From an uncultured Eubacteriales bacterium (GTDB lineage: Bacteria > Bacillota > Clostridia > Christensenellales > Borkfalkiaceae), in assembly GCA_959603585.1 (NCBI GenBank), contig CAUGYD010000006.1, positions 46,288-110,287 of the forward strand: a DNA stretch of 64,000 bases, read 5' to 3'. Every line of letters begins with the position of its first letter. Position 1 is the first letter of the stretch. Below are positions 5,503-36,630 of this stretch, one piece after another. The position numbers and the translations under genes are program-made. The notes under the pieces were generated by a model, which ran no database searches, was not told the DNA's origin, and worked only from the letters and a program-made list of their open reading frames with translations.

Positions 5503-5508
5503 TCGCCT

Positions 5509-9069: not shown

Positions 9070-9987
9070 ATGACATGTATTTTTATTTACAATCCGAACA
9101 GCGGACGGGGAAAAATCGAGAAAAAACTTTCGTATATCGTAAAAAAGTTGAAGACGAAATACGAGAAGGTAGATGTATACGCTACAAAGGCTAAGGGGGA
9201 TTTGACGCAAAAGGTACGGGAAGTTGCGGATAAATACGATTGCGTTGTGTTTTCAGGTGGAGACGGAAGCTTTAACGAAGTTTTGCGCGGAATTGGCGAT
9301 ATGGAAAATTTACCTCTTCTCGGATATATTCCCGGCGGAACGGCAAACGATATCGCGCATAGCTTGGGAATTGCCCGAAAAAGCGTGCGCAAAGCGGTAA
9401 AAGTTGTTCTTAAAGGTCGTAAAGAATATCTCGATTGTATGCGCATCAACGGTAAAGAATACGCCATGTATTCTGTTTCGGCGGGGGCGTTCACCAGCGC
9501 TGCCTATACGACGCCGCAGGAGGCAAAGCGCGCACTGGGACTTCTCGCTTATGGCTTAGAAGGAATCCGAAAAAATCTTCCCTTCAAAGTTTTTCCTATG
9601 GCGGTTGAAGACGGAGCGCAAAGGACAGAGACCGAAAGTGTCTTTACATTGATTATGAACACCAAATGTGTTGCCGGTTGGAAAATGAACGGAGGGGGGT
9701 CCATGAGCGACGGTATTATGGAATGTGCGGTCGTCAAACAAAAGATAAGCCCTAATCTCTATAATAAAGCTCGCGCGTTGTTTGCGCTTGTCCGTCTTTT
9801 TGTATTCGGATATCGTTTTAAGGAGAAAAATTTACTCCGTTTCAAGGGAGAAAGATTACGGTTTGAAGTTCCTGACGATGTGGTATGGAATTATGACGGG
9901 GAAAAAGGGGCGAGCGGCAGTATAGACATTGAAGTCCTTCACAGAAAGGTTCCGCTTCTCGTTCCAAAAAATAATAAAAATATTTAG
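9070..9987 (+). CDS. Diacylglycerol kinase family lipid kinase (YegS/DagK-like)
   Basis: The DAGK catalytic motifs are present (IYNPNSGRG, VVFSGGDGSFNEV, GYIPGGTANDIAHSLGI). The internal ATG at 9070 is chosen over the ORF-track start. Confidence 0.8.
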   Translation: MTCIFIYNPNSGRGKIEKKLSYIVKKLKTKYEKVDVYATKAKGDLTQKVREVADKYDCVVFSGGDGSFNEVLRGIGDMENLPLLGYIPGGTANDIAHSLGIARKSVRKAVKVVLKGRKEYLDCMRINGKEYAMYSVSAGAFTSAAYTTPQEAKRALGLLAYGLEGIRKNLPFKVFPMAVEDGAQRTETESVFTLIMNTKCVAGWKMNGGGSMSDGIMECAVVKQKISPNLYNKARALFALVRLFVFGYRFKEKNLLRFKGERLRFEVPDDVVWNYDGEKGASGSIDIEVLHRKVPLLVPKNNKNI

Positions 9988-10064: not shown

Positions 10065-10140
10065 GCTACTGTGGCTCAGTCGGTAGAGCGAGTGATTCGT
10101 AATCACTAGGTCGCCGGTTCAAATCCGGCCAGTAGCTCCA
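10065..10140 (+). tRNA. tRNA-Thr (anticodon CGU)
   Basis: The cloverleaf was folded by hand. The 7-bp acceptor stem is GCTACTG/CAGTAGC, the D-arm is GCTC-AGTCGGTAGA-GAGC, and the anticodon stem AGTGA/TCACT carries the loop TTCGTAA (anticodon CGT). The T-arm is GCCGG-TTCAAAT-CCGGC, followed by a discriminator and CCA. Confidence 0.85.
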
Positions 10141-10278: not shown

Positions 10279-11544
10279 CTATATGCCGCAAAAGACATTT
10301 TGTATCTTTCCGGATACACTTTCAAGGTATTCCGTCGTAGTGTCCGTATATATATTTTGCGTAACCGCCAACGATGCGTGCCCGAGCAGATATTGTTTGA
10401 GCTTCGGTTGTATGTTTCCTTCTTCCAATCTCGTCGCATAGGTATGCCGCAAAATATGGAGAGTAACATTTAATCCCGTTTCTTTCGCGATTCTTTCGGT
10501 TGCCTTACGGACTGCATCGTAAGAATACGGAAAGATAGCGTCGCCGCTCATACATTTGATTTCATCGCATATACTTCGGGGAACCGGTACGATGCGATAT
10601 CCCGCATCCGATTTCGGCGTTTGCTCGATCTTTTCTCCGTTTACGAACACTACATTTTTATTGACCGAAACAATACCTTTTTCAAAATCGAAATCGGAAC
10701 GTTTCAGCGCGAGCGCTTCTCCTATACGCAATCCCGTACTGAGTAAAAATCGATACAATAAAGAGTGTTTCGTTTGGGAGGCTGCCCTCAAAAAGATTTC
10801 TTGTTCTGCTCTCGTGAGTGCTTTTTTATGCGAAGCCTTATGCCTTTTGATTTCCACGGCATCGCAGGGGTTATTTTTGATTATCCCTTGTATTACCGCC
10901 TTTTTGAATAATTGAGACAAATTGATCTTGCACAGGTCTCTTATTCGTCCCGCCTTTATTCCGACCAACAACTTTTGAATATCGTTTGAGGTTATCTCGT
11001 CCAGCGCCTTATCTTGAAATGCTTTTTCCGCGTATTTTAACGACCTCTCCATCGATTGTAACGATGAGGGTTTTAGATTGGGCTTTTTATAGATCTCGAT
11101 CCATTCGGACATATAGGCAAGGAACATAGGGCTCGATTTTTTGCGCGGTTTTACCTTTTGAGGGGTGCGCTGTCTTCTGCTTCGGCTGTTTCTCAAAAAC
11201 TCTCTGATTTTGTTTGTAACATCTTCGTAATTCCTCCCGTAAAAGTATTTGCGTTGTCCGTCATCCTGAATGATATACCCTTGGAACCTTCCGTCCCGTC
11301 TCGGTTTACTTGTGATGGATACGCCTTTCGCTTCTATTAACATTTGACTCTCCTTTTCAGTAGTCAAAGCATTGCCGTTTTTATCTTCAATATTTTTAGC
11401 TTCCATTAATGACCTCAATATATCTTTCGTAAAACTTTCTGCCGCCAAACGCAGCACTGTGGCCGTGGCATCGTCTTTACTTTTACCGTTAACAGAAGCT
11501 GTATTTATAATTTTAAGTACATTTACTAGTTCGTCATGATTCAT
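10279..11544 (-). CDS. Tyrosine-type site-specific integrase (phage integrase family with arm-binding N-domain)
   Basis: The C-terminal catalytic region carries R...HxLRHTYATRL...Y (LHILRHTYATRLEEGN, NIYTDTT). Its 3' end lies 139 bp from the tRNA-Thr. Confidence 0.9.
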   Translation of the reverse strand: MNHDELVNVLKIINTASVNGKSKDDATATVLRLAAESFTKDILRSLMEAKNIEDKNGNALTTEKESQMLIEAKGVSITSKPRRDGRFQGYIIQDDGQRKYFYGRNYEDVTNKIREFLRNSRSRRQRTPQKVKPRKKSSPMFLAYMSEWIEIYKKPNLKPSSLQSMERSLKYAEKAFQDKALDEITSNDIQKLLVGIKAGRIRDLCKINLSQLFKKAVIQGIIKNNPCDAVEIKRHKASHKKALTRAEQEIFLRAASQTKHSLLYRFLLSTGLRIGEALALKRSDFDFEKGIVSVNKNVVFVNGEKIEQTPKSDAGYRIVPVPRSICDEIKCMSGDAIFPYSYDAVRKATERIAKETGLNVTLHILRHTYATRLEEGNIQPKLKQYLLGHASLAVTQNIYTDTTTEYLESVSGKIQNVFCGI

Positions 11545-12044: not shown

Positions 12045-12094
12045 TACAGTCATATACAAGTGTCGTCAATAAAATGGTTTGGAGAAAGTTCTGA
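12045..12094 (+). repeat. Direct repeat copy 1 (50 bp, identical to the last 50 bp of the fnlC-like gene at 30054-30103)
   Basis: The sequence tacagtcatatacaagtgtcgtcaataaaatggtttggagaaagttctga is found exactly at 12045-12094 and at 30054-30103. Flanks differ on both sides. Confidence 0.9.
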
Positions 12095-13241: not shown

Positions 13242-14720
13242 TCAATCTCTTTGGAACAAGTCTCTTGTATAGACTTTTTCTTTAACATCGTCAAGGCAAG
13301 AATCAAAACGATTAGCAATAATACAGCGACTCATTTTCTTAAATTTTTTGAGATCGTTGACGATAAGGCTCCCAAAAAACGTAGTTCCGTTTTCCAAAGT
13401 CGGCTCGTAAATAATCACCGTAGCCCCTTTCGCTTTAATTCGTTTCATGACTCCTTGGATAGAGGATTGACGAAAGTTATCGGAATTACTCTTCATGGTC
13501 AGTCGGTAAACGCCGACAATGACCTCCTTTTCTTTATTTTCGTCAAAGATGCTATTCGCTTCATAAGCACCTGTAAGTTCTAGAATCCGATCAGCAATAA
13601 AATCCTTTCTCGTGTGATTACTTTCCACAATCGCTGTTATCATGTTCTGCGGTACGTCGTTGTAGTTGGCAAGAAGTTGTTTAGTATCCTTGGGTAAACA
13701 GTAACCGCCATAACCAAACGAGGGATTATTATAATGTGTCCCGATGCGTGGATCAAGGCATACGCCTGTAATGATATCTTGTGTATTTAATCCCTTAACC
13801 TCTGCATATGTATCTAGTTCATTAAAATAGGAAACTCGAAGCGCTAAATATGTATTGGCAAAAAGTTTAACAGCTTCGGCTTCAGTAAATCCCATCAATA
13901 ATATCTCTACATTCTTTTTGATAGAACCTTCTTGTAAAAGTTCAGCAAAAGTTTGAGCTGATTTTAATAGTTTTTCGTCTGATTTATCCGTGCCTACAAT
14001 AATACGTGAAGGATAAAGATTGTCATAAAGAGCCTTGCTTTCACGTAAAAATTCAGGACTGAAAATTATATTTTTCGTATTATATTTAGCTCGGATAGCT
14101 ACCGTATATCCGACAGGAATAGTCGATTTTATAACTATGATTGCGTTCGGATTAACTTTAAGAACAAGTTTAATTACTTCTTCTACTGCAGAAGTGTCAA
14201 AATAATTCTTCTTGCTATCATAATTAGTTGGCGTAGCGATAATTACGAAATCGGCATTTTTATAGGCATTTTCACCATCAAGTGTGGCTACAAGATTAAG
14301 GTTTTTATGAGAAAGATATTCTTCAATATAGTCATCTTGGATGGGGGATTTTTTTTGATTGATAAGTTCTACTTTTTTTGGAACAACATCAACTGCTGTG
14401 ACTTGATTATGTTGAGCAAGTAATATAGCTAGCGATAAACCGACATAACCTGTTCCTGCAACAGCAATGTTTACTGACGAATGAAAAGCTGTAAAGGGCA
14501 TGATAGACTCATCTCCAAACATAGCACTTGGCTCAAATCCAAGAACATCACCGAGTTTTTCAAGTTGTGGGATTAGAGGAATATAATTCCCTTGTTCTAA
14601 GCGACTAATAATTGCTCTATTGATGCCTGTAAGGATAGAAAGCTGTTGTTGAGATAAATGCTTTTCCTTTCTTAGGGAAATAACTTTTTGTGCTAGCATT
14701 TTTACATTTAGTTTTTTCAT
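13242..14720 (-). CDS. ugd: UDP-glucose 6-dehydrogenase with an in-frame N-terminal XRE-family HTH domain
   Basis: Residues about 85-492 align throughout with E. coli Ugd ([66 protein letters not shown]). Residues 1-66 form a complete HTH_XRE domain ([39 protein letters not shown]). No stop codon separates the two parts. Confidence 0.85.
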
Positions 14721-27710: not shown

Positions 27711-28916
27711 ATGAAAGTACTGATAACGGGAGCGAAAGGATTTGTCGGAAAGAATCTGGTAAGTGCTCTGAAAAACATAAAAGAAGGGAAAGACAAAACA
27801 CGTCTGAATCTCAGTATAGAAGAAGTATACGAATACGATTTGGATACGGACAAAGAGCTGTTGGCGGAATACTGTGAGAAAGCGGATTTCGTGTTTCATT
27901 TGGCGGGAGTAAATCGTCCGAATGATAATGCGGAATTTATGCAGGGAAATTTCGGGTTTTCTTCCGTTTTGTTGGATACGTTGAAAAAGTATAAAAACAC
28001 TTGCCCCGTAATGTTGTCGAGTTCGGTACAGGCAACACTGATCGGAAGATACGGACAGAGCGATTACGGGAAATCCAAGTTGGCGGGAGAAGAACTTTTT
28101 TTCGCGTATGCCCAAAAAACGGAATCGGAAGTATTTGTATATCGTTTTCCGAATTTATTCGGAAAATGGTGCCGACCGAACTATAACAGTGCGGTGGCGA
28201 CGTTTTGCTATAATACGGCGAATGATTTGCCTATAACGATAAATAACAGAAATACCGAATTGGAACTGGTCTATATAGACGACCTCGTGACGGAAATGCT
28301 AGATAGCTTAGAAGGAAAAGCGCATCGATGCGATTATGAGGGACTCAATCCGATACCGACTGAAACGGGAAAATATTGCTATGTGCCCGTATCGCATAAA
28401 GAGACGCTTGGGAGAATTGTCGAACTTTTGGAAACATTCCGAAATCAGCCGACTACTCTTGTAATGCCCGAGATTCCGAAGGGAAGTTTTGAGAAGAAAC
28501 TGTATTCGACGTATCTATCGTATTTGCCGAAAGAAAAGATAAGCTTCCCGTTGAAAATGAACATAGATGAACGCGGAAGTTTTACGGAACTACTCAAAAC
28601 GAAAAAATGCGGTCAGATAAGCGTGAACATAAGTAAACCCGGCATAACGAAAGGGGAACATTGGCATAACAGTAAATGGGAGTTCTTTATCGTGGTATCG
28701 GGACACGGACTGATACAAGAACGGAAAATCGGAACGGAGGAAATACTGAATTTCGAAGTATGCGGAGAGAAAATCGAAGCTGTTCATATGCTACCCGGGT
28801 ATACGCATAACATCATCAATCTGAGCAACACAGAACCGTTGATAACGGTGATGTGGGCAAATGAGACATTTGATATAAAGCATCCCGACACATTCGGAGA
28901 AAAGGTAGAAAAATGA
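27711..28916 (+). CDS. fnlB: FnlB/CapF-type bifunctional SDR reductase with C-terminal cupin (UDP-L-FucNAc pathway)
   Basis: The N-terminal SDR motif MKVLITGAKGFVGKNL is combined with a C-terminal cupin (GEHWHNSKWEFFIVVSGHG). Total length is 401 aa. Confidence 0.8.
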   Translation: MKVLITGAKGFVGKNLVSALKNIKEGKDKTRLNLSIEEVYEYDLDTDKELLAEYCEKADFVFHLAGVNRPNDNAEFMQGNFGFSSVLLDTLKKYKNTCPVMLSSSVQATLIGRYGQSDYGKSKLAGEELFFAYAQKTESEVFVYRFPNLFGKWCRPNYNSAVATFCYNTANDLPITINNRNTELELVYIDDLVTEMLDSLEGKAHRCDYEGLNPIPTETGKYCYVPVSHKETLGRIVELLETFRNQPTTLVMPEIPKGSFEKKLYSTYLSYLPKEKISFPLKMNIDERGSFTELLKTKKCGQISVNISKPGITKGEHWHNSKWEFFIVVSGHGLIQERKIGTEEILNFEVCGEKIEAVHMLPGYTHNIINLSNTEPLITVMWANETFDIKHPDTFGEKVEK

Positions 28917-30103
28917 ATACGGAAATCAAACTCGATTATAGCGATATAAAATTCAAGAATGACGGCAGATTAAAACTACTGATTATCGTAGGGACGCGTC
29001 CGGAGATTATCCGTCTTGCAGCGGTGATTACAAAATGTCGGAAGTATTTTGATTGTATTCTTGCGCATACGGGACAGAATTACGATTATACCTTAAACGG
29101 GATATTTTTTCATGACCTCAAACTCAAAGCCCCGGAAGTGTATATGGACGCGGTGGGCGAGGATTTGGGGGCGACAGTGGGGAATATCATCAACTGTTCC
29201 TATAAGCTGATGAATCAAATCTGCCCCGAGGCATTACTGATTCTCGGAGATACGAACAGCTGTCTTTCAGCAATCGCGGCGAAGAGATTGCATATCCCGA
29301 TATTTCATATGGAAGCGGGGAATCGTTGTAAAGACGAATGTTTGCCTGAAGAGACAAACCGTCGGATTGTAGATATTATTTCGGACGTGAATATGGCATA
29401 CAGCGAACACGCGAGAAGATATTTGGCGGAATGCGGTCTGCCGAAAGAGAGGACGTATGTAACGGGAAGCCCGATGGCAGAAGTATTGCATAATAATCTC
29501 GACGAGATTGAAAAAAGCAATATCCTTGAAAAACTGAATTTAGAACCGAGAAAATATATCTTGCTTTCGGCACATAGAGAGGAGAATATAGATACGGAGA
29601 AGAATTTCTTATCATTGTTCAATGCAATCAATAGATTAGCGGAGAAATACGATAAGCCGATATTATATTCCTGTCATCCGAGAAGCAAAAAACGTTTGGA
29701 CGAAAACGGATTTAAGTTGGATAAGAGAGTAATCCGCCACGAGCCTTTGGGATTTCATGATTATAATAAGTTGCAGATGAACGCATATGCGGTAGTGTCG
29801 GACAGCGGGACGTTACCGGAGGAAAGCAGTTATTTCACGAGTATAGGAAAGTCGTTTCCGGCGGTGTGTATCCGAACGAGTACGGAGAGACCGGAAGCGT
29901 TGGATAAAGGCTGTTTCATATTGGCCGGGATAGACGAGAAGTCCTTATTACAAGCAGTAGAAACGGCAGTTAGGATGAACGATGAAGGGGATTACGGAAT
30001 CCCCGTACCCGACTACACGGACGAGAATGTGTCGACAAAGGTAGTAAAACTCATACAGTCATATACAAGTGTCGTCAATAAAATGGTTTGGAGAAAGTTC
30101 TGA
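28913..30103 (+). CDS. fnlC: FnlC/CapG-type UDP-N-acetyl-L-talosamine/L-fucosamine 2-epimerase
   Basis: It belongs to the non-hydrolysing UDP-GlcNAc 2-epimerase family, with an N-terminus LLIIVGTRPEIIRLAAVI. It is the third gene of the fnlABC arrangement. Its last 50 bp are duplicated at 12045. Confidence 0.8.
   Translation: MNTEIKLDYSDIKFKNDGRLKLLIIVGTRPEIIRLAAVITKCRKYFDCILAHTGQNYDYTLNGIFFHDLKLKAPEVYMDAVGEDLGATVGNIINCSYKLMNQICPEALLILGDTNSCLSAIAAKRLHIPIFHMEAGNRCKDECLPEETNRRIVDIISDVNMAYSEHARRYLAECGLPKERTYVTGSPMAEVLHNNLDEIEKSNILEKLNLEPRKYILLSAHREENIDTEKNFLSLFNAINRLAEKYDKPILYSCHPRSKKRLDENGFKLDKRVIRHEPLGFHDYNKLQMNAYAVVSDSGTLPEESSYFTSIGKSFPAVCIRTSTERPEALDKGCFILAGIDEKSLLQAVETAVRMNDEGDYGIPVPDYTDENVSTKVVKLIQSYTSVVNKMVWRKF
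30054..30103 (+). repeat. Direct repeat copy 2 (3' terminus of fnlC including the stop codon)
   Basis: This 50-nt stretch is identical to 12045-12094. Confidence 0.9.
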
Positions 30104-30204
30104 TGGACGAAAAAATCTCAATTTTTTCACAGAAAATTCCGTGATTAGTTGAGATTTCTACCATATAAATAAAGGACTATGGAAATATAAATTTAAAAAG
30201 GAAT

Positions 30205-30373
30205 TAAACTTTTTACAAAAGAAAGCCGTACTCTCAAAAGGAGTACGGCTTTCAACAAATATACTTGGGAACTGTGAACGAAAGAATGGTTGTCTATACC
30301 AATAGGTATAAAGTCGATTCGATGTCGATCATTAGACGAATCTTTAACCGCTTATGACAACAACGAATTTCTA
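30205..30373 (-). ncRNA. Candidate sRNA 2 (minus strand), defined by promoter plus intrinsic terminator
   Basis: On the minus strand there is a -35 TTGACA (plus coordinates 30408-30403), a 17-nt spacer and a -10 TACAAT (30385-30380). Downstream is a 13-bp perfect hairpin gaaagccgtactc/gagtacggctttc (30221-30253) followed by UUUUGUAAAAAGUUU on the minus strand. The only ORF in the transcript is a 12-codon one. Confidence 0.3.
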
Positions 30374-30688
30374 AAATATATTGTAGCGTATTCTTTATGA
30401 TTTGTCAATCACTTTTGAACGATTAGCTAATATTTTTTTATATATTTATTTCAGGGGCGAATGTGACATTCGTATTTGAGCCATCGTGAAATCCTCGGGA
30501 AAATTCGATGATGTCCGTATAGCTCGAAATTGGTGTTTTAAGACGCATTAAAGGGTTGGATGAGAATGGGTCGGGAAAGTGCGGAATTCTTCTCTTAGGA
30601 GTAAAAGAATAGGCTTTAACAGAGTTTTGATAAATAAATGTTCGCGCAAGTTTTCAAAAACATAGAAAATAAAAACACCGTTGCTTCA

Positions 30689-30797
30689 CAAAAAGAAACC
30701 ACGCCCCGAAAGGGGCGCGGTCTCTAAACAAAAACTATACCTAATGGATTGAACTGATGATGTATGAACAATATTAAGCTTATCTAAATATATTTTA
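30689..30797 (-). ncRNA. Candidate sRNA 1 (minus strand), defined by promoter plus intrinsic terminator, divergent from the hipB promoter
   Basis: On the minus strand there is a -35 TTGACA (30820-30815), a 17-nt spacer and a -10 TAAAAT (30797-30792). Downstream is the hairpin ccgcgcccc-tttc-ggggcgtgg (30699-30720) followed by UUUCUUUUUG. The transcript is about 100 nt and contains no AUG. Confidence 0.35.
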
Positions 30798-30947
30798 CCG
30801 AAAAATCAAACAGTTGTCAATATATTTTTGGGATAAATTCAAAAATTTTTTATAAAAAATCGTAAATTTTTTGCAAGAGAAAAAATTGTTCTTTTTTGAG
30901 CACTTTTTCTTTACAAATCCAAAAAAATATGCTAAAATATTAGCACT

Positions 30948-31241
30948 ATGAAAAATCGATTCGATATAAGCGCCTTTGTGAACGTGTTGACGGTCCAAAC
31001 GGCTATGGAAAATTTAGCACAGCGTTTTCGGAAAAGACGGAAGGAGAAAAAACTTTCTCAGAAAAGAATTGCTCAGCAATCCGGAGTGAGTTACGCTTCC
31101 GTGCGCCGTTTTGAAAGTAGCGGACGAATTTCCCTTCATTCGCTGATGGAGCTCGCACGTGTTCTCGGCTGCCTCGAAGATTTTAACGAGCTGTTCAAAA
31201 CGCCCGTTATTTCTGACTTAGAAGATTACGACGATGATTAA
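30948..31241 (+). CDS. hipB: XRE-family HTH antitoxin, HipB-like
   Basis: The HTH motif LSQKRIAQQSGVSYASVRRFESSG and an acidic C-tail are present. Its stop overlaps the hipA start by 8 nt. An extended -10 TGcTAAAAT lies 9 nt upstream of the ATG at 30948, so the mRNA may be leaderless. An alternative start is at 31005. Confidence 0.7.
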   Translation: MKNRFDISAFVNVLTVQTAMENLAQRFRKRRKEKKLSQKRIAQQSGVSYASVRRFESSGRISLHSLMELARVLGCLEDFNELFKTPVISDLEDYDDD

Positions 31242-32328
31242 AAACATTAAAAAACTTACTGTAAAATATAATGATAGGACCGTAGGAATTCTGGCTGAGG
31301 TGGAAGAAGGGAAAATCGCGTTTCAGTATGACGAAAAGTGGGTGAAGAACGGTTTTTCGGTTTCGCCGGTTTCGCTTCCCTTGAATAGGGAAGTATATGT
31401 CAATCGTAAAGATACGTTTGAAGGATTGTATGGGGTGTTTCATGATTCTCTGCCCGACGGTTGGGGGGAACTTCTCGTCAGCCGCATGTTGGTGAAACAA
31501 GGAATGAATTATGCGGAGCTTTCTCCGCTCACGAAGCTTTCAATCGTTTCGGAAAACGGGCTCGGAGGGTTAACGTATGAACCGTCTCAAACGGAGAAAG
31601 AGAGCGTCGGCTATAACCTCGATGCTTTGGCGCAGCAGGCGGCAGACGTTTTGGAGGACGGAGACATCAATGCCGATTTGGATACGATTTATTATTTGGG
31701 CGGTTCGAGCGGAGGCGCTCGTCCCAAAGTGCATGTTCGTGAGGGAAAAGAGGAATGGATTGTGAAGTTTCCTTGCCGTATCGATTCGCCCGAATCTGGG
31801 CGGAAAGAGCTAGAAATGAATTTCGCTGCCAAACGCTGCGGAATCGACGTAAATGAATGTAAATTGTTTCCGTCGAAGATCTGCGGCGGATATTTCGGCG
31901 CGAAACGTTTTGACAGGCAGGACGGAAAGCATTTGCATATGATTTCCCTTTCGTCCGTTTTGGAAACGACGCATCGCGTACCCAATCTCGACTATATGCA
32001 CTTGTTTCAGGTGATTTCCGTCATCTGCGGCGATATGAACGACTTGTACGAGGCTTTTCGGCGGATGTGTTTCAATGTTTTTTATGAAAACAAGGATGAC
32101 CACGGAAAAAATTTTTCCTTTCTCTACGACGAAAAGAGATATATGTATCGTCTGTCTCCCGCTTACGATTTGACGCAAACTCCGAATAAACCCGAACATG
32201 AAATGACGGTTCTCGGAAACGGCAATCCGACGGAAGAGGACTTGATCGCCGTCTCCAAAGAACTGAACCTTTCCCGAAAGCGCTGTATTCATATCTTGGA
32301 AACGGTGAAAAAGGGGGAATATCAGTAA
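31234..32328 (+). CDS. hipA: HipA-family serine/threonine kinase toxin
   Basis: The HipA N-terminal domain is followed by the catalytic motifs GGSSGGARPKV and DDHGKNFSF (compare D-x-H-x-KN-x-S) and by SPAYDL. Confidence 0.85.
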   Translation: MIKNIKKLTVKYNDRTVGILAEVEEGKIAFQYDEKWVKNGFSVSPVSLPLNREVYVNRKDTFEGLYGVFHDSLPDGWGELLVSRMLVKQGMNYAELSPLTKLSIVSENGLGGLTYEPSQTEKESVGYNLDALAQQAADVLEDGDINADLDTIYYLGGSSGGARPKVHVREGKEEWIVKFPCRIDSPESGRKELEMNFAAKRCGIDVNECKLFPSKICGGYFGAKRFDRQDGKHLHMISLSSVLETTHRVPNLDYMHLFQVISVICGDMNDLYEAFRRMCFNVFYENKDDHGKNFSFLYDEKRYMYRLSPAYDLTQTPNKPEHEMTVLGNGNPTEEDLIAVSKELNLSRKRCIHILETVKKGEYQ

Positions 32329-33205
32329 ATTGGGGAAACGTTGTCATAATAAAGAAAATCGTGGAGTTTCCTCTCGAAGATTTTCACAATTTTATTTATT
32401 ATTTTACATAGAATCTTTTACCTTCAAAATCATGGTATCAATTGATGTCTGATATACCGGTAATGCCTTTAAGTACTATATAGTATATTTTCAGCATATT
32501 TCACCATAATATATTTGATTCATGGATGCTTCGTAAAAAAATTTATTGACGATGAAGGAATCGTATGCTATAATGGATGTAAAAATTTGAGACTTGTATG
32601 ATAGATACAATGAAAGGAAATCTGGCCTATACGGGAAGGGAACACAGAAATGGTTTGTATCCAGTGTTTTTTTTAACATTTCCCGTCGTTGGCTTTTGGA
32701 TATTTTTCGTCTATGTCAATATAACCTCGATATTTATGGCTTTTCAGTAGCCGAATTACAACGATGGCGGATTGAAAGAAGTATATACGCTTGAAAAATT
32801 CAGGAAGATATTTAATTTTTCAAATGTGGATTTCAAGACCCCTTGTCAATAAAATAGTCTTTCTAAAATTGAAATTTTATGGTACTCGCGAATACGAAAA
32901 AAGGAATAAGTCAAACAAACATAATTCTATAGAGATTAAAAAAGAAAGTGAATTACAGGCGAGACAATTGTCTTGTCTGTTTTTTCTTTTATATTGAGTA
33001 AAGTTCCATTCTCGACGATCATTATTAACTCAAAACATTGACTTTTTATTGTTGTTAGAGTATGATATAGTTAAGGTTGGAAAAGAATTTGAGAGTTTGG
33101 TTTATACGATTAGCGCAAAACAGTGAATTTAATTATGAAACAAATAAATCGAAATGAAGACATGGCGATGGAAAGATTCGTTCATTTTTGTCTGGAGGGG
33201 ATATA

Positions 33206-35680
33206 ATGAGTAAGACATCGGATTTTAAAAAGATGACAAGTTGCATTATAGATCCAATTGCGGATAAGTATACAGAATATGAAAAGTTAAAGACAGAATG
33301 CGCGCAATTACGAGCGGAAAATACGAAATTAAGAGAGAAATTAGATAGTCTGTGCATTCGTTACGGTATAGAATTACCCGACGAAGATAATTCCAGTGAT
33401 GTCGCTTCGGAAGCAGAAAAGACTGAAGAAATATCCCCCGCTGTGACAAATTGCAGTACGTCCGAAGAAAAAATCGAGTTATTTATGTCGCTGTTCCGTG
33501 GGCGGGAGGACGTATGCGCCAAACGCTGGCACAGCGAAAAGAGTGGAAAAAGCGGGTATCAACCGGTATGCCTAAACGAATGGAATACATGGCTTTGCGA
33601 TAAGAGGAAAACGAAGTGTGCGGATTGTAAAAACAGAAAATTTGCTCCGCTTACGGAAAATGTTATCCGCAAGCATTTACAGGGAAAAGTCGCAAATAGC
33701 ACGGATACAATCGGCGTATATCCGTTGACGAAGGATGAATGCTGTTATTTTCTCGTCATAGATTTTGACGGTGAAGGTTGGAAAGAAGATATTTCCGCCG
33801 TGCGGGAAATATGCGGAAAAAATGATATTCCCGTTCTTGCCGAACGTTCTAGATCGGGGCAGGGCGGACACCTTTGGTTCTTCTTTACGGATAAAGTCAA
33901 AGCCTCACAGGCCCGGAGATTGGGAACTCTTCTGATTAACGGAGCTATGCAGGTAAGACACGACATCGGCTTTTCTGCGTATGACAGATTATTCCCTAAT
34001 CAAGATGTCATGCCGAAAGGAGGTTTCGGAAATTTGATCGTGCTGCCGTTACAGGGCGGTCCGCGTCGAAACGGAAACAGTGTATTCGTCGATGAAGATT
34101 TTAAGGAATATCCCGACCAGTGGCAGGTCCTTGCCTGCGTTTCGCGGATAGATGAGGAAAAACTAAAAGAAAAGGTTAGAGTACTTTCAATATATGACGA
34201 GCCAGTTGAACAATCAATATTGCGGACAACTGAAAGTCATGACGGCAGAAAGCAAAAATCAGGCTTGTCCGCCGAGGATTTTCCGTCGATTATCCGTATT
34301 TCTTGTTCAAATATGATCTATACGGAAAAAAGCGGCGTTTCCGAACGGGCGCTCGGCGCGATTAAACGAATGGGCGTATATGCCAATCCCGAGTTTTTTA
34401 AGGCTCAAAAAATGCGTTTACCTACTTATGGAAAACCGAGATTTATTTGCGTGTACGAAGAGGACGATGCATATATCGTAATTCCGCGTGGGCGGCTCGA
34501 CAGGTTACGCTCGCTGTTAAAAGAAGCGGGAGTGCAATTTTTGTTGGACGACAGAAGGAACGGCGGAGAAAAAATCAAGGTATCCTTTAACGGAACTTTG
34601 CGTGAAGAACAACAGCGCGCGTTTTCGGCGCTTATGTCGCGCGATACGGGTGTATTGTCGGCAACTACTGCGTTCGGAAAGACGGTGGTCGGGGCGCGAA
34701 TGATTGCCGAAAGAAAACGAAATACATTGGTATTGGTACATACTTCGGCACTTCTCAACCAATGGAAATCCACTTTGACGAAATTTCTTGATTTTGGTTA
34801 TGAATTGCCCGAATGGAAAAAAACGCGAGGCCGGAAGAAAGAACTTTCGTATATCGGGCAACTGGGTGCGGCCAAAAATACGCTGAACGGCAAAATCGAT
34901 ATTGCGATTATGCAGTCTCTCGGCGGAAAAAACGGTGTAAAGGAGATTGTTAAGAATTACGGCCTCGTTATCGTAGACGAATGTCATCATGTACCCGCGC
35001 TCATGTTCGAGCAAGTGCTGAAAGCGGTGAATGCAAAATATGTTTATGGTTTGACGGCGACGCCTGTTCGCGCGGACGGAGGCTTGAAAACGCTCAATCG
35101 GATTTTTTCGGAGCTTTGTGTAAGCAAAAACCGCAACAAATTAATAGTGGACGACGTTGTGAAAACGGTGGATTGCGGTCGTATGCCCATTGTCTTGACC
35201 GAACGTTCCGAACACGCGAAACTGTTAACCGACGAAATCGAAAAACGGAGCGTAAAGGTCTTCTTGCTGGTCGGGAAAGAATCGGCAAAACTCAAAAGGG
35301 AAAAATTGGCGGAGATTGCCGCCGCAAAGCCTTTGGAGCGCTTTGCGATTGTAGCGATCGGTCGATATGTGGGAGAAGGCTTCGATTTCGCGAGACTGGA
35401 CACGCTGTTTTTGGCTATGCTTATTTCGTGGAAAGGAAAACTGACACAATACGCGGGACGGCTTCACCGAGATTATGCGGGTAAAAACGAAGTAATTATT
35501 TACGATTATGTCGATTTGAACGTATCAATGCTCGAAAATATGTATCATAAGAGATTGAAGGGCTATAAAGATATCGGTTACGAGATCCATGCGGACATAA
35601 AATCGTGCAAGCGTGGTACTACTTGTGATGTAATTTATAAGGAAGGGACAGGGAGAAAATGCTCATTGACAGGGAAATGA
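33206..35680 (+). CDS. Multidomain protein: coiled-coil, Cys-rich region, PrimPol/AEP-like domain, SF2 DEAD/DEAH-type helicase
   Basis: The RBS GGAGGGG lies 5 nt before the ATG at 33206. Residues about 20-55 form a coiled-coil (heptad pattern). Around residue 100 is a Cys cluster (CAKRW...CLNEWNTWLCDKRKTKCADC). AEP-like motifs are present: hhhhDhD (YFLVIDFDGEG), sGxGxH (SRSGQGGHLWFFF) and motif III (RHDIGF...DRLFP). The C-terminal half is an SF2 helicase with Walker A TAFGKTVVG, Walker B VIVDECHHVPA, motif III LTATPVRADG and an Arg-finger region GRYVGEGFDFARLDTLFLA. Confidence 0.6.
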   Translation: MSKTSDFKKMTSCIIDPIADKYTEYEKLKTECAQLRAENTKLREKLDSLCIRYGIELPDEDNSSDVASEAEKTEEISPAVTNCSTSEEKIELFMSLFRGREDVCAKRWHSEKSGKSGYQPVCLNEWNTWLCDKRKTKCADCKNRKFAPLTENVIRKHLQGKVANSTDTIGVYPLTKDECCYFLVIDFDGEGWKEDISAVREICGKNDIPVLAERSRSGQGGHLWFFFTDKVKASQARRLGTLLINGAMQVRHDIGFSAYDRLFPNQDVMPKGGFGNLIVLPLQGGPRRNGNSVFVDEDFKEYPDQWQVLACVSRIDEEKLKEKVRVLSIYDEPVEQSILRTTESHDGRKQKSGLSAEDFPSIIRISCSNMIYTEKSGVSERALGAIKRMGVYANPEFFKAQKMRLPTYGKPRFICVYEEDDAYIVIPRGRLDRLRSLLKEAGVQFLLDDRRNGGEKIKVSFNGTLREEQQRAFSALMSRDTGVLSATTAFGKTVVGARMIAERKRNTLVLVHTSALLNQWKSTLTKFLDFGYELPEWKKTRGRKKELSYIGQLGAAKNTLNGKIDIAIMQSLGGKNGVKEIVKNYGLVIVDECHHVPALMFEQVLKAVNAKYVYGLTATPVRADGGLKTLNRIFSELCVSKNRNKLIVDDVVKTVDCGRMPIVLTERSEHAKLLTDEIEKRSVKVFLLVGKESAKLKREKLAEIAAAKPLERFAIVAIGRYVGEGFDFARLDTLFLAMLISWKGKLTQYAGRLHRDYAGKNEVIIYDYVDLNVSMLENMYHKRLKGYKDIGYEIHADIKSCKRGTTCDVIYKEGTGRKCSLTGK

Positions 35681-36267: not shown

Positions 36268-36630
36268 ATGCGAGGATTGGTCTTTTTAGTCTGGTGTGTT
36301 TTGCCTGTAATTATTCTACTGTTTTTTTCTTTGAAACCAATGAAAAAGACAGCTGTAATCAGGAAACATCTCAGAGATAAAAGAATGAGCGGCAAAGGAG
36401 AAAAGTTCGATATGTTGAATCTCATCAATCGTTTTATCGGAAAAAAATGTGATATCTCGACAATAGACGAAGAATATACGGGCGTAATTGAGTCGGTCGA
36501 AGAAAATTGGCTCGTTGTTCGTAGCGGAGATTCCGATGCGGAAGAAATCATTAATTTGGAGTATGTAACGAGCGTCCGTCAGTGTCGGGAAAAGAAGAAA
36601 AAGCTCGTTTCGGAAAAACAGACAGTATAA
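36268..36630 (+). CDS. Hypothetical small protein
   Basis: A 120-aa ORF that converges on tmcAL. The N-terminus is hydrophobic, and an alternative start at the MSGKGEKF Met is possible. No recognisable motif is present. Confidence 0.3.
   Translation: MRGLVFLVWCVLPVIILLFFSLKPMKKTAVIRKHLRDKRMSGKGEKFDMLNLINRFIGKKCDISTIDEEYTGVIESVEENWLVVRSGDSDAEEIINLEYVTSVRQCREKKKKLVSEKQTV

Follow-up and report, generated by a model that had tools for sequence, protein, structure and literature searches.

A chimeric, deletion-derived homologue of the IS-excision enhancer IEE from an uncultured gut Clostridia species

Analysis of a 64,000-nucleotide stretch of DNA from an uncultured Eubacteriales bacterium (Borkfalkiaceae; hereafter the window) showed that the open reading frame (ORF) of 824 amino acids at positions 33206..35680 (+) is, by sequence comparison, a homologue of IEE, the insertion sequence (IS)-excision enhancer of E. 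coli O157:H7. Two deletions shaped this ORF into a chimeric derivative. The most likely explanation is that it represents an IEE homologue from a subfamily carrying a C-terminal PLD nuclease domain, which was damaged by these deletions and probably lost its original activity. The original prediction, made from the sequence alone, had presented it as an unusual fusion of an archaeo-eukaryotic primase (AEP)-like domain and an SF2 helicase, possibly serving in anti-phage defence, and missed the chimeric origin.

Relationship to IEE and domain architecture

A BLASTP comparison with IEE (ECs1305) gave 39% identity over 810 columns (565 bits, E=0), covering residues 31–797 of the window protein and 9–780 of IEE. 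The identity of the comparator was confirmed by its length of 786 amino acids and by the agreement of D142, D144, H178, D216, K451, and R735 with the published residue numbers. Both proteins are collinear across an LxxENxxL helix, a Cys4 cluster, AEP motifs A/B/C, a linker, and the SF2 motifs, and both match the Pfam families AEP-TOTE (329 bits for IEE and 325 bits for the window protein), ResIII, and DEAD. Each is encoded by a single gene in horizontally acquired DNA, E. coli iee being located in an integrative element beside integrase, AlpA, YfjI, and Gp2-like genes. The C-terminus of the window protein falls at about the end of IEE, but its last 20 residues are foreign, 61% of the aligned positions are unlike, and 46 helicase-core residues present in IEE are missing. 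IEE itself has no PLD domain, whereas the lineage of the window protein normally carries one as an additional C-terminal module. The fusion of AEP and SF2 helicase is not unusual: it is the defining architecture of the IEE/Z1568-like family, known since 2005–2011 and studied biochemically in 2023 (PMC9943667), it occurs in 'CAPP-Helicase' proteins, and it is catalogued as Pfam AEP-TOTE. E. coli IEE enhances IS excision in a transposase-dependent manner and is a Mn-dependent polymerase with MMEJ activity (PMC9943667); its biology was also addressed in bioRxiv 10.1101/2023.06.07.543989.

The domain order of the window protein is coiled coil, Cys4 cluster, AEP domain, and SF2 helicase. The coiled coil predicted at about residues 20–55 was recovered as a long N-terminal helix at residues 17–53 (33254..33364, +; AlphaFold pLDDT 84–93) with weak bZIP/HALZ leucine-zipper HMM matches. 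This helix is kept in IEE (LxxENxxL), aligning with IEE residues 9–25, and is a putative dimerisation element. A cysteine cluster was also present, with a spacing (C104-x17-C122-x8-C131-x6-C138-x2-C141) that differs from the one originally given. Its last four cysteines (33569..33628, +), in the N-terminal part of the AEP module, were invariant across 36–37 aligned homologues and in IEE, while C104 is a Tyr in the family; the Cys4 cluster is probably a zinc site. The AEP (Z1568-like) primase-polymerase domain at residues 88–322 (33467..34171, +) was confirmed by the profile search, matching Pfam PF22548 with E=3.4e-97 and 325 bits (cutoff 27) over profile positions 1–229 of 230, and the PADLOC PrimPol profile with 295 bits. 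Its catalytic residues D186/D188 (motif I), H222 (motif II), and D260 (motif III) are intact, invariant in the family alignment, and aligned with D142/D144/H178/D216 of IEE. Foldseek searches with the full-length model were dominated by the helicase, and sequence profiles served instead to assess the AEP and PLD folds.

Between the AEP domain and the helicase core, a linker domain at about residues 355–460 (34268..34585, +) was modelled as strands and helices (362–461, pLDDT 81–95). It may form the N-terminal part of a predicted XPB-like module; Foldseek alignments of the full-length relative P0002 to XPB cover approximately 500–700 columns. The helicase module of this relative resembled, in sequence and fold, XPB (E=1.5e-20), UvsW (3e-19), and SauUSI (1.7e-13). 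In the window protein, the XPB/UvsW-like SF2 ATPase/helicase at residues 464–795 (34595..35590, +) matched the ResIII (82.5 bits) and DEAD (46 bits) HMMs above threshold. The complete SF2 core of the original prediction was borne out for motifs I, II, III, and VI (K492, DECH 591–594, TAT 617–619, and QxxGRxxR 748–755), but the core of seven motifs on two RecA-like domains is interrupted and incomplete, and Pfam Helicase_C, detected in IEE, was undetected in the window protein. Substitutions affected 4 of 233 highly conserved columns, compared to 1–7 in intact controls, and a family-invariant Pro is replaced by Leu at residue 739.

Two deletions and a borrowed C-terminus

Alignments with the related loci L008, L007, and L013 revealed the junction of a 138-bp in-frame deletion at 35066..35079 (+), between motifs III and IV. 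The 46 helicase-core residues lost were retained in all of the 105 aligned homologues and in IEE, and correspond in the P0002 model to a helix (622–629), a strand (632–635), a second helix (638–644), and a second strand (648–655). In intact relatives, the 138-bp segment is flanked by GGACGG-type microhomology. The structure model of the window protein accordingly lacks both helices and both strands, and its deletion junction is modelled as disordered (pLDDT <50).

The second deletion, of 10,732 bp, has its breakpoint at 35618..35619 (+) with a 3-bp GTA microhomology. Up to position 35618 the window is 99.99% identical to contig L013 of the same species and divergent beyond, while the sequence to the right of 35618|35619 matches L101, which lies 10,732 bp further along that contig. 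This deletion removed the C-terminal PLD nuclease domain together with downstream cargo, and a tblastn search of the whole window in any frame recovered no PLD remnant. In its place, the ORF acquired in frame the last 20 codons and stop of an unrelated 85-aa ORF (35619..35680, +), which is conserved at L096, L099, L101, and L102 and ends there in ...NKSTTCDVIYKEGTGRKCSLTGK* at the same position. The resulting residues 805–824 are foreign to the family and were modelled as a disordered tail (pLDDT 24–33). Microhomology at both junctions (GGACGG and GTA) is the kind of product made by IEE-type enzymes.

Sister alleles at the same locus bear independent inactivating lesions: a 1-bp deletion in the codon of AEP motif II in L008, a frameshift within the PLD region in P0131/L013, and a replaced C-terminus in P0031. 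The dN/dS ratio between the window and L008 alleles was 0.12, indicating that the gene was under selection until recently and that the lesions are young. Identical DNA of the window allele was found on at least six contigs, and a protein of the same sequence on 22+42 contigs; the 90% cluster of the protein contained three singleton amino-acid variants only. Since the six copies compared at the DNA level were all identical, selection on the window allele was not measurable from population variation.

Genomic setting and family distribution

The ORF was confirmed in the ORF list with a ribosome-binding site of its own, the Shine-Dalgarno sequence GGAGGGG at 33194–33200. The segment comprising this site, the ATG, and the first eight codons (33187..33232, +) is near-identical, by blastn and alignment, to the beginning of a DUF3791 gene in L007; the IEE-like gene of that locus begins at the position corresponding to window Met10. 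Two promoters had been proposed in the 870-bp leader. A gene-proximal sigma-70-like candidate (TTGACT-17-TATGAT; 33038..33066, +) scored 10/12 in a consensus scan, as a pattern match only, but the distal promoter-like site (32546–32574) looks like part of a separate small unit with a terminator-like site at 32955–32980. An Rfam scan for the proposed sRNA candidates gave no RNA family near the locus, the only match being the distant tRNA.

The neighbours in the window are HipB, HipA, two small ORFs, and a HIGH_NTase1 gene. The region had been described as tRNA-linked, and a tRNA-Thr (10065–10140) does lie beside a tyrosine integrase, but it is the only tRNA in the window and about 22–23 kb upstream of the gene, so that the link is weak; an att-type repeat of its 3' end bounding an island with the gene was not found. 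A survey of 80 homologous loci, in which ±4 genes were clustered and 114 upstream neighbours were scanned with Pfam, upheld the description of a solitary gene in a variable region. No neighbour cluster occurred in more than 12 loci, and TPR/OB/TBP, cas, Rep, partition, and integrase genes were absent among the recurrent neighbours. Genes found near homologues included AbiEii, Abi_2, RhuM, AAA_14/DUF4143 (PADLOC candidate PDC-S01), and SLFN_AlbA_2, as well as HipBA, vWA-kinase-PP2C, and nSTAND genes; the homologous loci are variable defence/mobile-island settings. The window locus, with a capsule/exopolysaccharide locus on one side and the pta-ackA region on the other, is a hotspot of strain-variable cargo, and in this uncultured gut Clostridia species several independent routes are leading to loss of the gene from it.

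Among the best 120 homologues the typical length was 950–980 amino acids, with a C-terminal PLDc_2 domain scoring 46–53 bits in typical members. The HxK(x)4D...GSxN pattern of this domain was present in 63 of 108 full-length members and absent from the window ORF; the closest relatives of the window protein have HxR in the PLD region, where their score stays under the Pfam cutoff (24.6 bits). This PLD-bearing (single-HKD) subfamily, common in anaerobes, is the one to which the window gene belongs, and homologues of approximately 800 amino acids without PLD also exist. PLD-bearing proteins turned up in hundreds of species, spread over Clostridia, Bacteroidota, Desulfobacterota, and other phyla, and in every case the gene stood alone in a variable island. 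Near-full-length copies were present in 61 plasmid records, whereas no match reaching 80% coverage of the protein occurred in any of 50,697 phage records. In the search of genome contigs, the best among the matches listed had 62% identity, and the species of the window was not among them. The PLD domain is unmentioned in the IEE literature searched.

Probable function and alternative explanations

If intact family members work as IEE does, their AEP domain would be an error-prone, Mn-dependent DNA polymerase, using microhomology of at least 4 bp to pair 3' ends. The SF2 module would be a DNA-dependent ATPase that holds DNA and permits synapsis rather than unwinding it; IEE displayed no unwinding activity (PMC9943667). 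Together they may rejoin or rewrite the DNA ends resulting from transposase action on copy-out-paste-in insertion sequences, and a dimeric PLD domain could add DNA cleavage or end processing in members of the longer subfamily. IS excision was demonstrated for the E. coli protein only, which is 39% identical, and in the PLD-bearing clade it is putative. With its nuclease missing and its RecA-like core damaged, the window allele has probably lost its original activity, and we infer that at most AEP polymerase activity survives. The allele could nevertheless have converged on the two-module form of IEE and still promote IS excision or microhomology-mediated rejoining, since its new C-terminus lies approximately at the natural end of the PLD-less IEE and PLD-less homologues of similar length exist. 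An open frame with a good Shine-Dalgarno sequence and a promoter-like site, the intact AEP and SF2 catalytic motifs, a number of substitutions at conserved columns within the range of intact controls, and the wide occurrence of the allele are consistent with such retained function. Full motor function is also unneeded for synapsis by IEE, where the ATPase-dead mutant K451A still promotes it (PMC9943667). IEE without its helicase domain, however, cannot synapse ends (PMC9943667), and the 46 missing residues comprise conserved strands and helices between RecA1 and RecA2, kept by every homologue and by IEE. The loss of the invariant Pro739 and the different lesions of the sister alleles, which suggest relaxed selection in the lineage, further argue against a functional allele, which we therefore consider unlikely.

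The preferred reading, a damaged IEE homologue, also has to be weighed against other roles for the family as a whole. A role in single-gene defence against phages or plasmids, with the polymerase-like domain and the helicase working together and the PLD nuclease joining them in full-length members, would suit solitary genes in variable islands near AbiEii, Abi_2, RhuM, HipBA, nSTAND, and other genes. The Pfam name of the AEP domain likewise refers to a 'conflict system': the name AEP-TOTE derives from TOTE conflict systems (TPR, OB, TBP, Effector; Aravind, Iyer and Burroughs, 2022). The window protein matches this AEP domain over its full length, but the TPR-OB (cold-shock) and TBP neighbours are absent beside the window gene and at the 80 loci. 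The PLD domain of full-length relatives matches the nucleases MkoC of Mokosh and DrmC of DISARM in PADLOC, and the helicase resembles that of the restriction enzyme SauUSI (7CLG), which, like them, couples a single-HKD PLD nuclease to an SF2 motor. In SauUSI, however, the PLD domain is N-terminal rather than C-terminal; the family differs from it further in having no target-recognition domain and in carrying the AEP polymerase as an extra module, and the window allele has no PLD domain at all. None of the system-specific models of PADLOC v2 matched the window protein, and only domain-level matches to CAS-associated PrimPol and to PbeA/HamB/type IV REase helicase regions were obtained. A literature search on PrimPol, helicase, and PLD anti-phage architectures found no report among the papers retrieved. 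With the sole characterised member, IEE, acting on insertion sequences and the nuclease missing from the window allele, a defence role appears rather improbable.

The original prediction offered as its alternative an orphaned replication initiator from a decayed integrative element. This reading, with a plasmid as another possible source of the primase-helicase, is much harder to sustain, and we regard it as very improbable. AEP-helicase fusions are typical replicases of mobile elements (PMC5862659), non-CRISPR CAPP homologues occur in mobile and transposable elements (PMC8211822), and the integrative element of E. coli iee, the 61 plasmid records, and the integrase and tRNA 22 kb upstream in the window are all compatible with such an origin. 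Against it stand the absence of full-length copies from the phage records and of recurring integrase, Rep, or partition neighbours at the 80 loci. The helicase is moreover an XPB/UvsW-like SF2 translocase and not a hexameric SF3/D5 helicase within a replication module, as in pRN1 ORF904 and D5-type replicases, or a DnaB-type helicase; no unwinding was seen with IEE, and a nuclease fused to a replicase would be odd. Descent from a CRISPR-associated primase-polymerase of the CAPP-Helicase type that lost its CRISPR-Cas partners has a next to negligible probability. CAPP of Marinitoga sp. 1137 (7NQD/7NQE/7NQF) is the nearest solved AEP structure by sequence, residues 149–315 of P0002 matching 7NQD/7NQF with E about 6e-8, and CAPP-Helicase has been described as the commonest non-CRISPR CAPP architecture (PMC8211822). 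The window protein, however, has no TPR or PriCT domain, and its NCBIfam PrimPol_Msp match (E=6.7e-32, 110.7 bits) is below the 200-bit equivalog cutoff. Neither Cas1/Cas2 nor other Cas families were found among the Pfam-annotated neighbours in the window or at the 80 loci, and no CRISPR-type repeat array was present at 9900–37000. The match to the PADLOC profile 'PrimPol, CAS-associated' (1.3e-88) is surpassed by that of IEE itself (488 bits), indicating that this profile is in effect IEE-type.

Overall, the window gene is a damaged, decaying, and probably crippled member of a known family, and neither a new defence system nor a new domain fusion. The comparison ties Pfam AEP-TOTE, the PADLOC 'CAS-associated PrimPol', and the studied IEE enzyme to one AEP family, of which the commonest form among the retrieved homologues, mostly from anaerobes, carries a PLD nuclease domain. 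This uncharacterised PLD-bearing subfamily is the one lead of note. Its members might be self-contained enzymes that cut, resect, and rejoin DNA by microhomology, directed against insertion sequences or invading DNA, with the window allele possibly still active, although we hold this proposal as decidedly doubtful. If the PLD-bearing form were indeed an autonomous enzyme for IS removal or DNA restriction, it would bear on how bacteria control their transposon load.

Domain composition and family assignment

The open reading frame at 33206–35680 on the + strand is real and encodes 824 aa (an alternative version of 830 aa starts at an upstream TTG), with a Shine-Dalgarno sequence, GGAGGGG, 5 nt ahead of its ATG and a promoter-like site, found by pattern matching, at 33038–33066. 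Profile searches confirmed the domain order of the original prediction, a coiled coil followed by cysteines, an AEP domain and an SF2 helicase: leucine-zipper-type matches, which were weak, covered residues 19–63, Pfam AEP-TOTE (PF22548) covered residues 88–322 (E = 3.4e-97), and ResIII and DEAD covered residues 464–622 (E = 4.3e-23) and 467–620 (E = 6e-12), respectively. The AEP motifs already named there (D186/D188, H222 and D260) are present and invariant in the family alignment, as are K492, DECH 591–594, TAT 617–619 and QxxGRxxR 748–755 of the SF2 domain. The cysteine cluster is also present, but its spacing is C104-x17-C122-x8-C131-x6-C138-x2-C141 rather than that proposed; only the last four cysteines (C122, C131, C138 and C141) are conserved, and these are invariant. 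Matches to the NCBIfam models PrimPol_Msp (CRISPR-associated primase-polymerase; 110.7 bits vs. a cutoff of 200) and XPB/Rad25 were sub-threshold. PADLOC yielded domain-level matches only ('CAS-associated PrimPol' and helicase regions from PbeA, HamB and type IV restriction enzymes), and PHROGs generic helicase and primase families.

P0002, a close full-length relative (79% identity), had 61 near-full-length matches in plasmid records by tblastn, including several in E. coli. The copy of E. coli O157:H7 (786 aa, annotated as 'DEAD/DEAH box helicase family protein' and located within an integrase-AlpA-YfjI-Gp2-like element) matches the published insertion-sequence excision enhancer (IEE) in its length and in residues D142, D144, S171, Q175, G176, H178, D216, K451 and R735 (Calvo et al., NAR 2023, PMC9943667). 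The window protein shares 39% identity with IEE over 810 columns (BLASTP; 565 bits, E = 0), in an alignment stretching from the N-terminal LxxENxxL helix through the last helicase motif. Since IEE itself matches Pfam AEP-TOTE (329 bits) and the PADLOC 'CAS-associated PrimPol' profile (488 bits), these two, IEE and the 'Z1568-like' family of a 2005 classification constitute one AEP family.

[quoted passage not shown] Its AEP domain is an error-prone, Mn-dependent polymerase that on its own polymerises but cannot synapse ends; the SF2 domain, a DNA-dependent ATPase without detectable unwinding, is required for end synapsis, and full IEE joins 3′ overhangs sharing at least 4 bp of microhomology (PMC9943667). 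Homologues have previously been noted across many phyla, including Firmicutes and Bacteroidetes (PMC9943667; bioRxiv 10.1101/2023.06.07.543989), and the work on CRISPR-associated primase-polymerases (CAPP) described a 'CAPP-Helicase' type, with the helicase fusion as the commonest non-CRISPR architecture (PMC8211822). P0002 was modelled with AlphaFold using 36 homologues (mean pLDDT 82), and the best Foldseek matches of the model in the PDB were XPB in TFIIH (E = 1.5e-20), archaeal XPB and T4 UvsW, with SauUSI, a PLD-helicase restriction enzyme, ranked lower. By sequence, the AEP part of P0002 resembled the Marinitoga CAPP structures 7NQD/7NQF and its helicase XPB, in agreement with published HHpred results for IEE (bioRxiv 10.1101/2023.06.07.543989).

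More than 7,900 relatives of the window protein were found in a search of 5.8 billion proteins, and the best 120 were mostly 950–980 aa long, with an additional C-terminal PLD-like domain (PF13091). Among 1.84 billion cluster representatives, the AEP domain alone had 7,253 matches at E ≤ 0.001, of which 1,138 reached E ≤ 1e-30, with lengths peaking at ~800 and ~960 aa besides many fragments. A PLD-less form like that of IEE was present in ~10 of 80 sampled loci and in the proteobacterial plasmid copies. In typical members the C-terminal domain scored 46–53 bits against PLDc_2 (consensus IHQKFAVID...WYGSxN), and it is similar to the Mokosh (MkoC) and DISARM (DrmC) PLD nucleases. In the clade nearest the window gene (P0002, P0004, P0010, P0023 and P0024), H-x-R replaces the H-x-K of the PLD motif, and the domain of the closest relatives scored 24.6 bits, under the Pfam cutoff; the nuclease may have been weakened already before its deletion in the window strain. 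No PLD-like sequence was found anywhere in the 64-kb window by tblastn with full-length proteins.

Deletions and decay of the window allele

Compared with its closest full-length relatives (P0002, P0004 and P0023), the window protein lacks an internal block after 'TATPVRADG' and departs from them after '...SCKRG'. The window allele is the product of deletions, and three events can be seen in it. One is a 138-bp in-frame deletion (46 aa) with its junction near 35073 (35066–35079), which distinguishes the window from the related strain L008 (92.6% nucleotide identity) and from L007, the island of another organism; intact sequences carry GGACGG-type direct repeats at either end of the segment. 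The 46 aa are kept in IEE and in 105/105 aligned homologues, and comprise 24 columns conserved at ≥95% that are gaps in the window protein. In the P0002 model they form helix 622–629, strand 632–635, helix 638–644 and strand 648–655; in the model of the window protein, junction residues 619–628 have pLDDT <50 and the second RecA-like domain is without its first strand. The SF2 core, originally predicted to be complete, is thus missing these 46 aa, and Pfam Helicase_C, detected in IEE, was undetected in the window protein.

The second event removed the 3′ end. The window and the same-species contig L013 are 99.99% identical over 12.4 kb up to 35618 and then diverge; sequence to the right of the 35618|35619 breakpoint maps 10,732 bp further along the L013 contig, within a conserved 85-aa ORF, indicating that residues 805–824 and the stop codon are the tail of that ORF. 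These residues were predicted to be disordered, and the junction of the 10.7-kb deletion has a 3-bp GTA microhomology. In the third event, common to the window and L008 alleles, the Shine-Dalgarno sequence, ATG and first eight codons (33187–33232) are nearly the same as the beginning of a DUF3791 gene at 5504–5545 of L007, where the IEE-like gene starts at the equivalent of window Met10. The presence of this start in the island of another organism indicates that the 5′ end of the gene was also remodelled by recombination.

Both deletion junctions (35066–35079, GGACGG-type; 35618|35619, GTA) bear the microhomology signature of slippage or microhomology-mediated joining. The latter is the reaction of IEE-type enzymes, and the match may be a coincidence.

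Independent lesions are also present in sister alleles. The L013 allele also has the 138-bp deletion and retains a PLD region that is frameshifted (P0131); that of L008/L009 has lost 1 bp from the AEP motif II codon block (GGH), on seven contigs, so that the gene is divided into parts of 242 and 743 aa; and the sister allele P0031 has an unrelated C-terminus. The window protein has substitutions at 4 of 233 highly conserved columns, one of them the invariant Pro739, vs. 1–7 in intact controls, and dN/dS between the window and L008 alleles was 0.12 (dS 0.21). The low dN/dS indicates purifying selection until recently, and hence young structural lesions. Six copies of the window allele were compared, and their DNA was identical throughout.

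A strain-variable cargo hotspot

The region at ~30100–35680 of the window is a hotspot of cargo genes that differ between strains. In the interval from the polysaccharide locus to the 85-aa ORF, same-species strains carried hipBA together with an HNH/GreA-like gene and one of AAA_14/DUF4143 type; KilA-N and HTH genes; RhuM and a fragment of IS110; or a frameshifted IEE-like gene with, downstream of it, genes for vWA-kinase-PP2C, an nSTAND-type ATPase and DUF2357. GH123/Big_2 genes were further cargo in hotspot loci L096–L103. Downstream of the frameshifted gene, L008/L009 (12380–22232) encode a coiled-coil protein and vWA, Ser/Thr kinase and PP2C phosphatase proteins resembling a TerY-P triad, then a 1067-aa AAA_11/AAA_12 helicase (weak nSTAND3 match) and more large unannotated ORFs, probably a multi-gene defence island.

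The right edge of the hotspot is a conserved trio of 85-, 96- and 120-aa ORFs upstream of HIGH_NTase1-pta-ackA; in the window, two small ORFs and the HIGH_NTase1 gene follow the IEE-like gene, then pta, ackA, yceD and rpmF. The window AckA falls in a ≥90% identity cluster with AckA of 'Candidatus Scatosoma' and other uncultured Clostridia. The 120-aa ORF (36268–36630, +) has an N-terminal hydrophobic segment and a small C-terminal domain (DUF6897 at 23.1 bits vs. a threshold of 23.9; weakly CotO and phage Hfq-like); it occurs in 439 blocks of the assembly collection and adjoins the HIGH_NTase1 gene in 8/8 matches listed.

The sole tRNA, tRNA-Thr(CGT) at 10065–10140 (+), lies 23 kb upstream of the gene. 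Directly after it, on the left margin of the polysaccharide locus, is a tyrosine integrase gene at 10279–11544 (−; Phage_integrase, E = 9e-20). Downstream, no att-like repeat derived from the tRNA end was found that would bound a region with the gene. A perfect 50-bp direct repeat (12045–12094 and 30054–30103, 18,009 bp apart) flanks the low-GC polysaccharide-biosynthesis cassette, its right copy being the 3′ end of a UDP-GlcNAc 2-epimerase-like gene (28913–30103). L005, a strain with a different cassette, has one copy, and the repeat looks like a recombination handle for capsule/EPS cassette swapping. The locus begins with an unusual enzyme-regulator fusion, also found in L005, a 492-aa UDP-glucose/GDP-mannose dehydrogenase (13242–14720, −) with an N-terminal HTH_3 (residues 15–64).

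Of the two promoters proposed for an 870-bp leader of the window gene, the site at 33038–33066 is indeed proximal, but that at 32546–32574, near-consensus with an extended −10 (TTGACG-17-TATAAT), belongs to what looks like a separate compact unit (32546–32980). This unit, which comprises the promoter, a 50-aa ORF (32598–32750; C-terminal half strongly hydrophobic, no Pfam match) and a terminator-like hairpin (32955–32980), might be a gene for a small membrane peptide, or a toxin-like one. It accompanies the IEE-like gene in L005 but not in L008.

Function of the family and of the window copy

With one genome scanned per species, at least 595 homologous loci were located, in Clostridia, Bacteroidota, Desulfobacterota, Planctomycetota, Actinomycetota, Paenibacillus and others. 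The view of the window gene as solitary was borne out: HipB and HipA lie upstream, and clustering of the genes within ±4 positions in the 80 sampled loci revealed no conserved partner, the commonest clusters (SLFN_AlbA_2/HATPase_c_4 and AAA_14/DUF4143 proteins) occurring in 12/80 and 8/80. A role of the family in defence has little positive support. RhuM, AbiEii and Abi_2 were among the other neighbours, together with AAA-ATPase/PDDEXK_9 and HTH proteins, and 114 upstream neighbours included the PADLOC candidates PDC-S01 (n = 8), PDC-S05 (n = 3) and PDC-S23 (n = 3). There is also little for a replication initiator: replication and partition families, like TPR-OB and TBP, were not seen among neighbours of the sampled loci, and phage records held no match covering ≥80% of the protein. 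Association with CRISPR has no positive support, Cas families being likewise unseen among these neighbours.

Most likely, the window gene is a recently crippled IEE-family member from the PLD-bearing subclade. By analogy with IEE, the SF2 module of intact members would bind DNA ends; during events induced by a transposase, these would be paired by microhomology and extended by the AEP polymerase. The PLD domain would contribute cleavage or processing of the ends and, having a single HKD motif, presumably dimerises to act, perhaps through the N-terminal coiled coil. With the nuclease gone and the motor core damaged, the window allele likely retains AEP polymerase activity alone. That it still works as a PLD-less IEE-like enzyme seems unlikely to us; natural PLD-less members exist, but IEE keeps the 46-aa segment that the window protein has lost.

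The architecture and the family are already known, and the window copy is a degenerate new member from an uncultured gut Clostridia species. The PLD-bearing form, widespread in our survey, goes without mention in the IEE papers cited here (bioRxiv 10.1101/2023.06.07.543989), and it is the sole aspect that might repay experiments.
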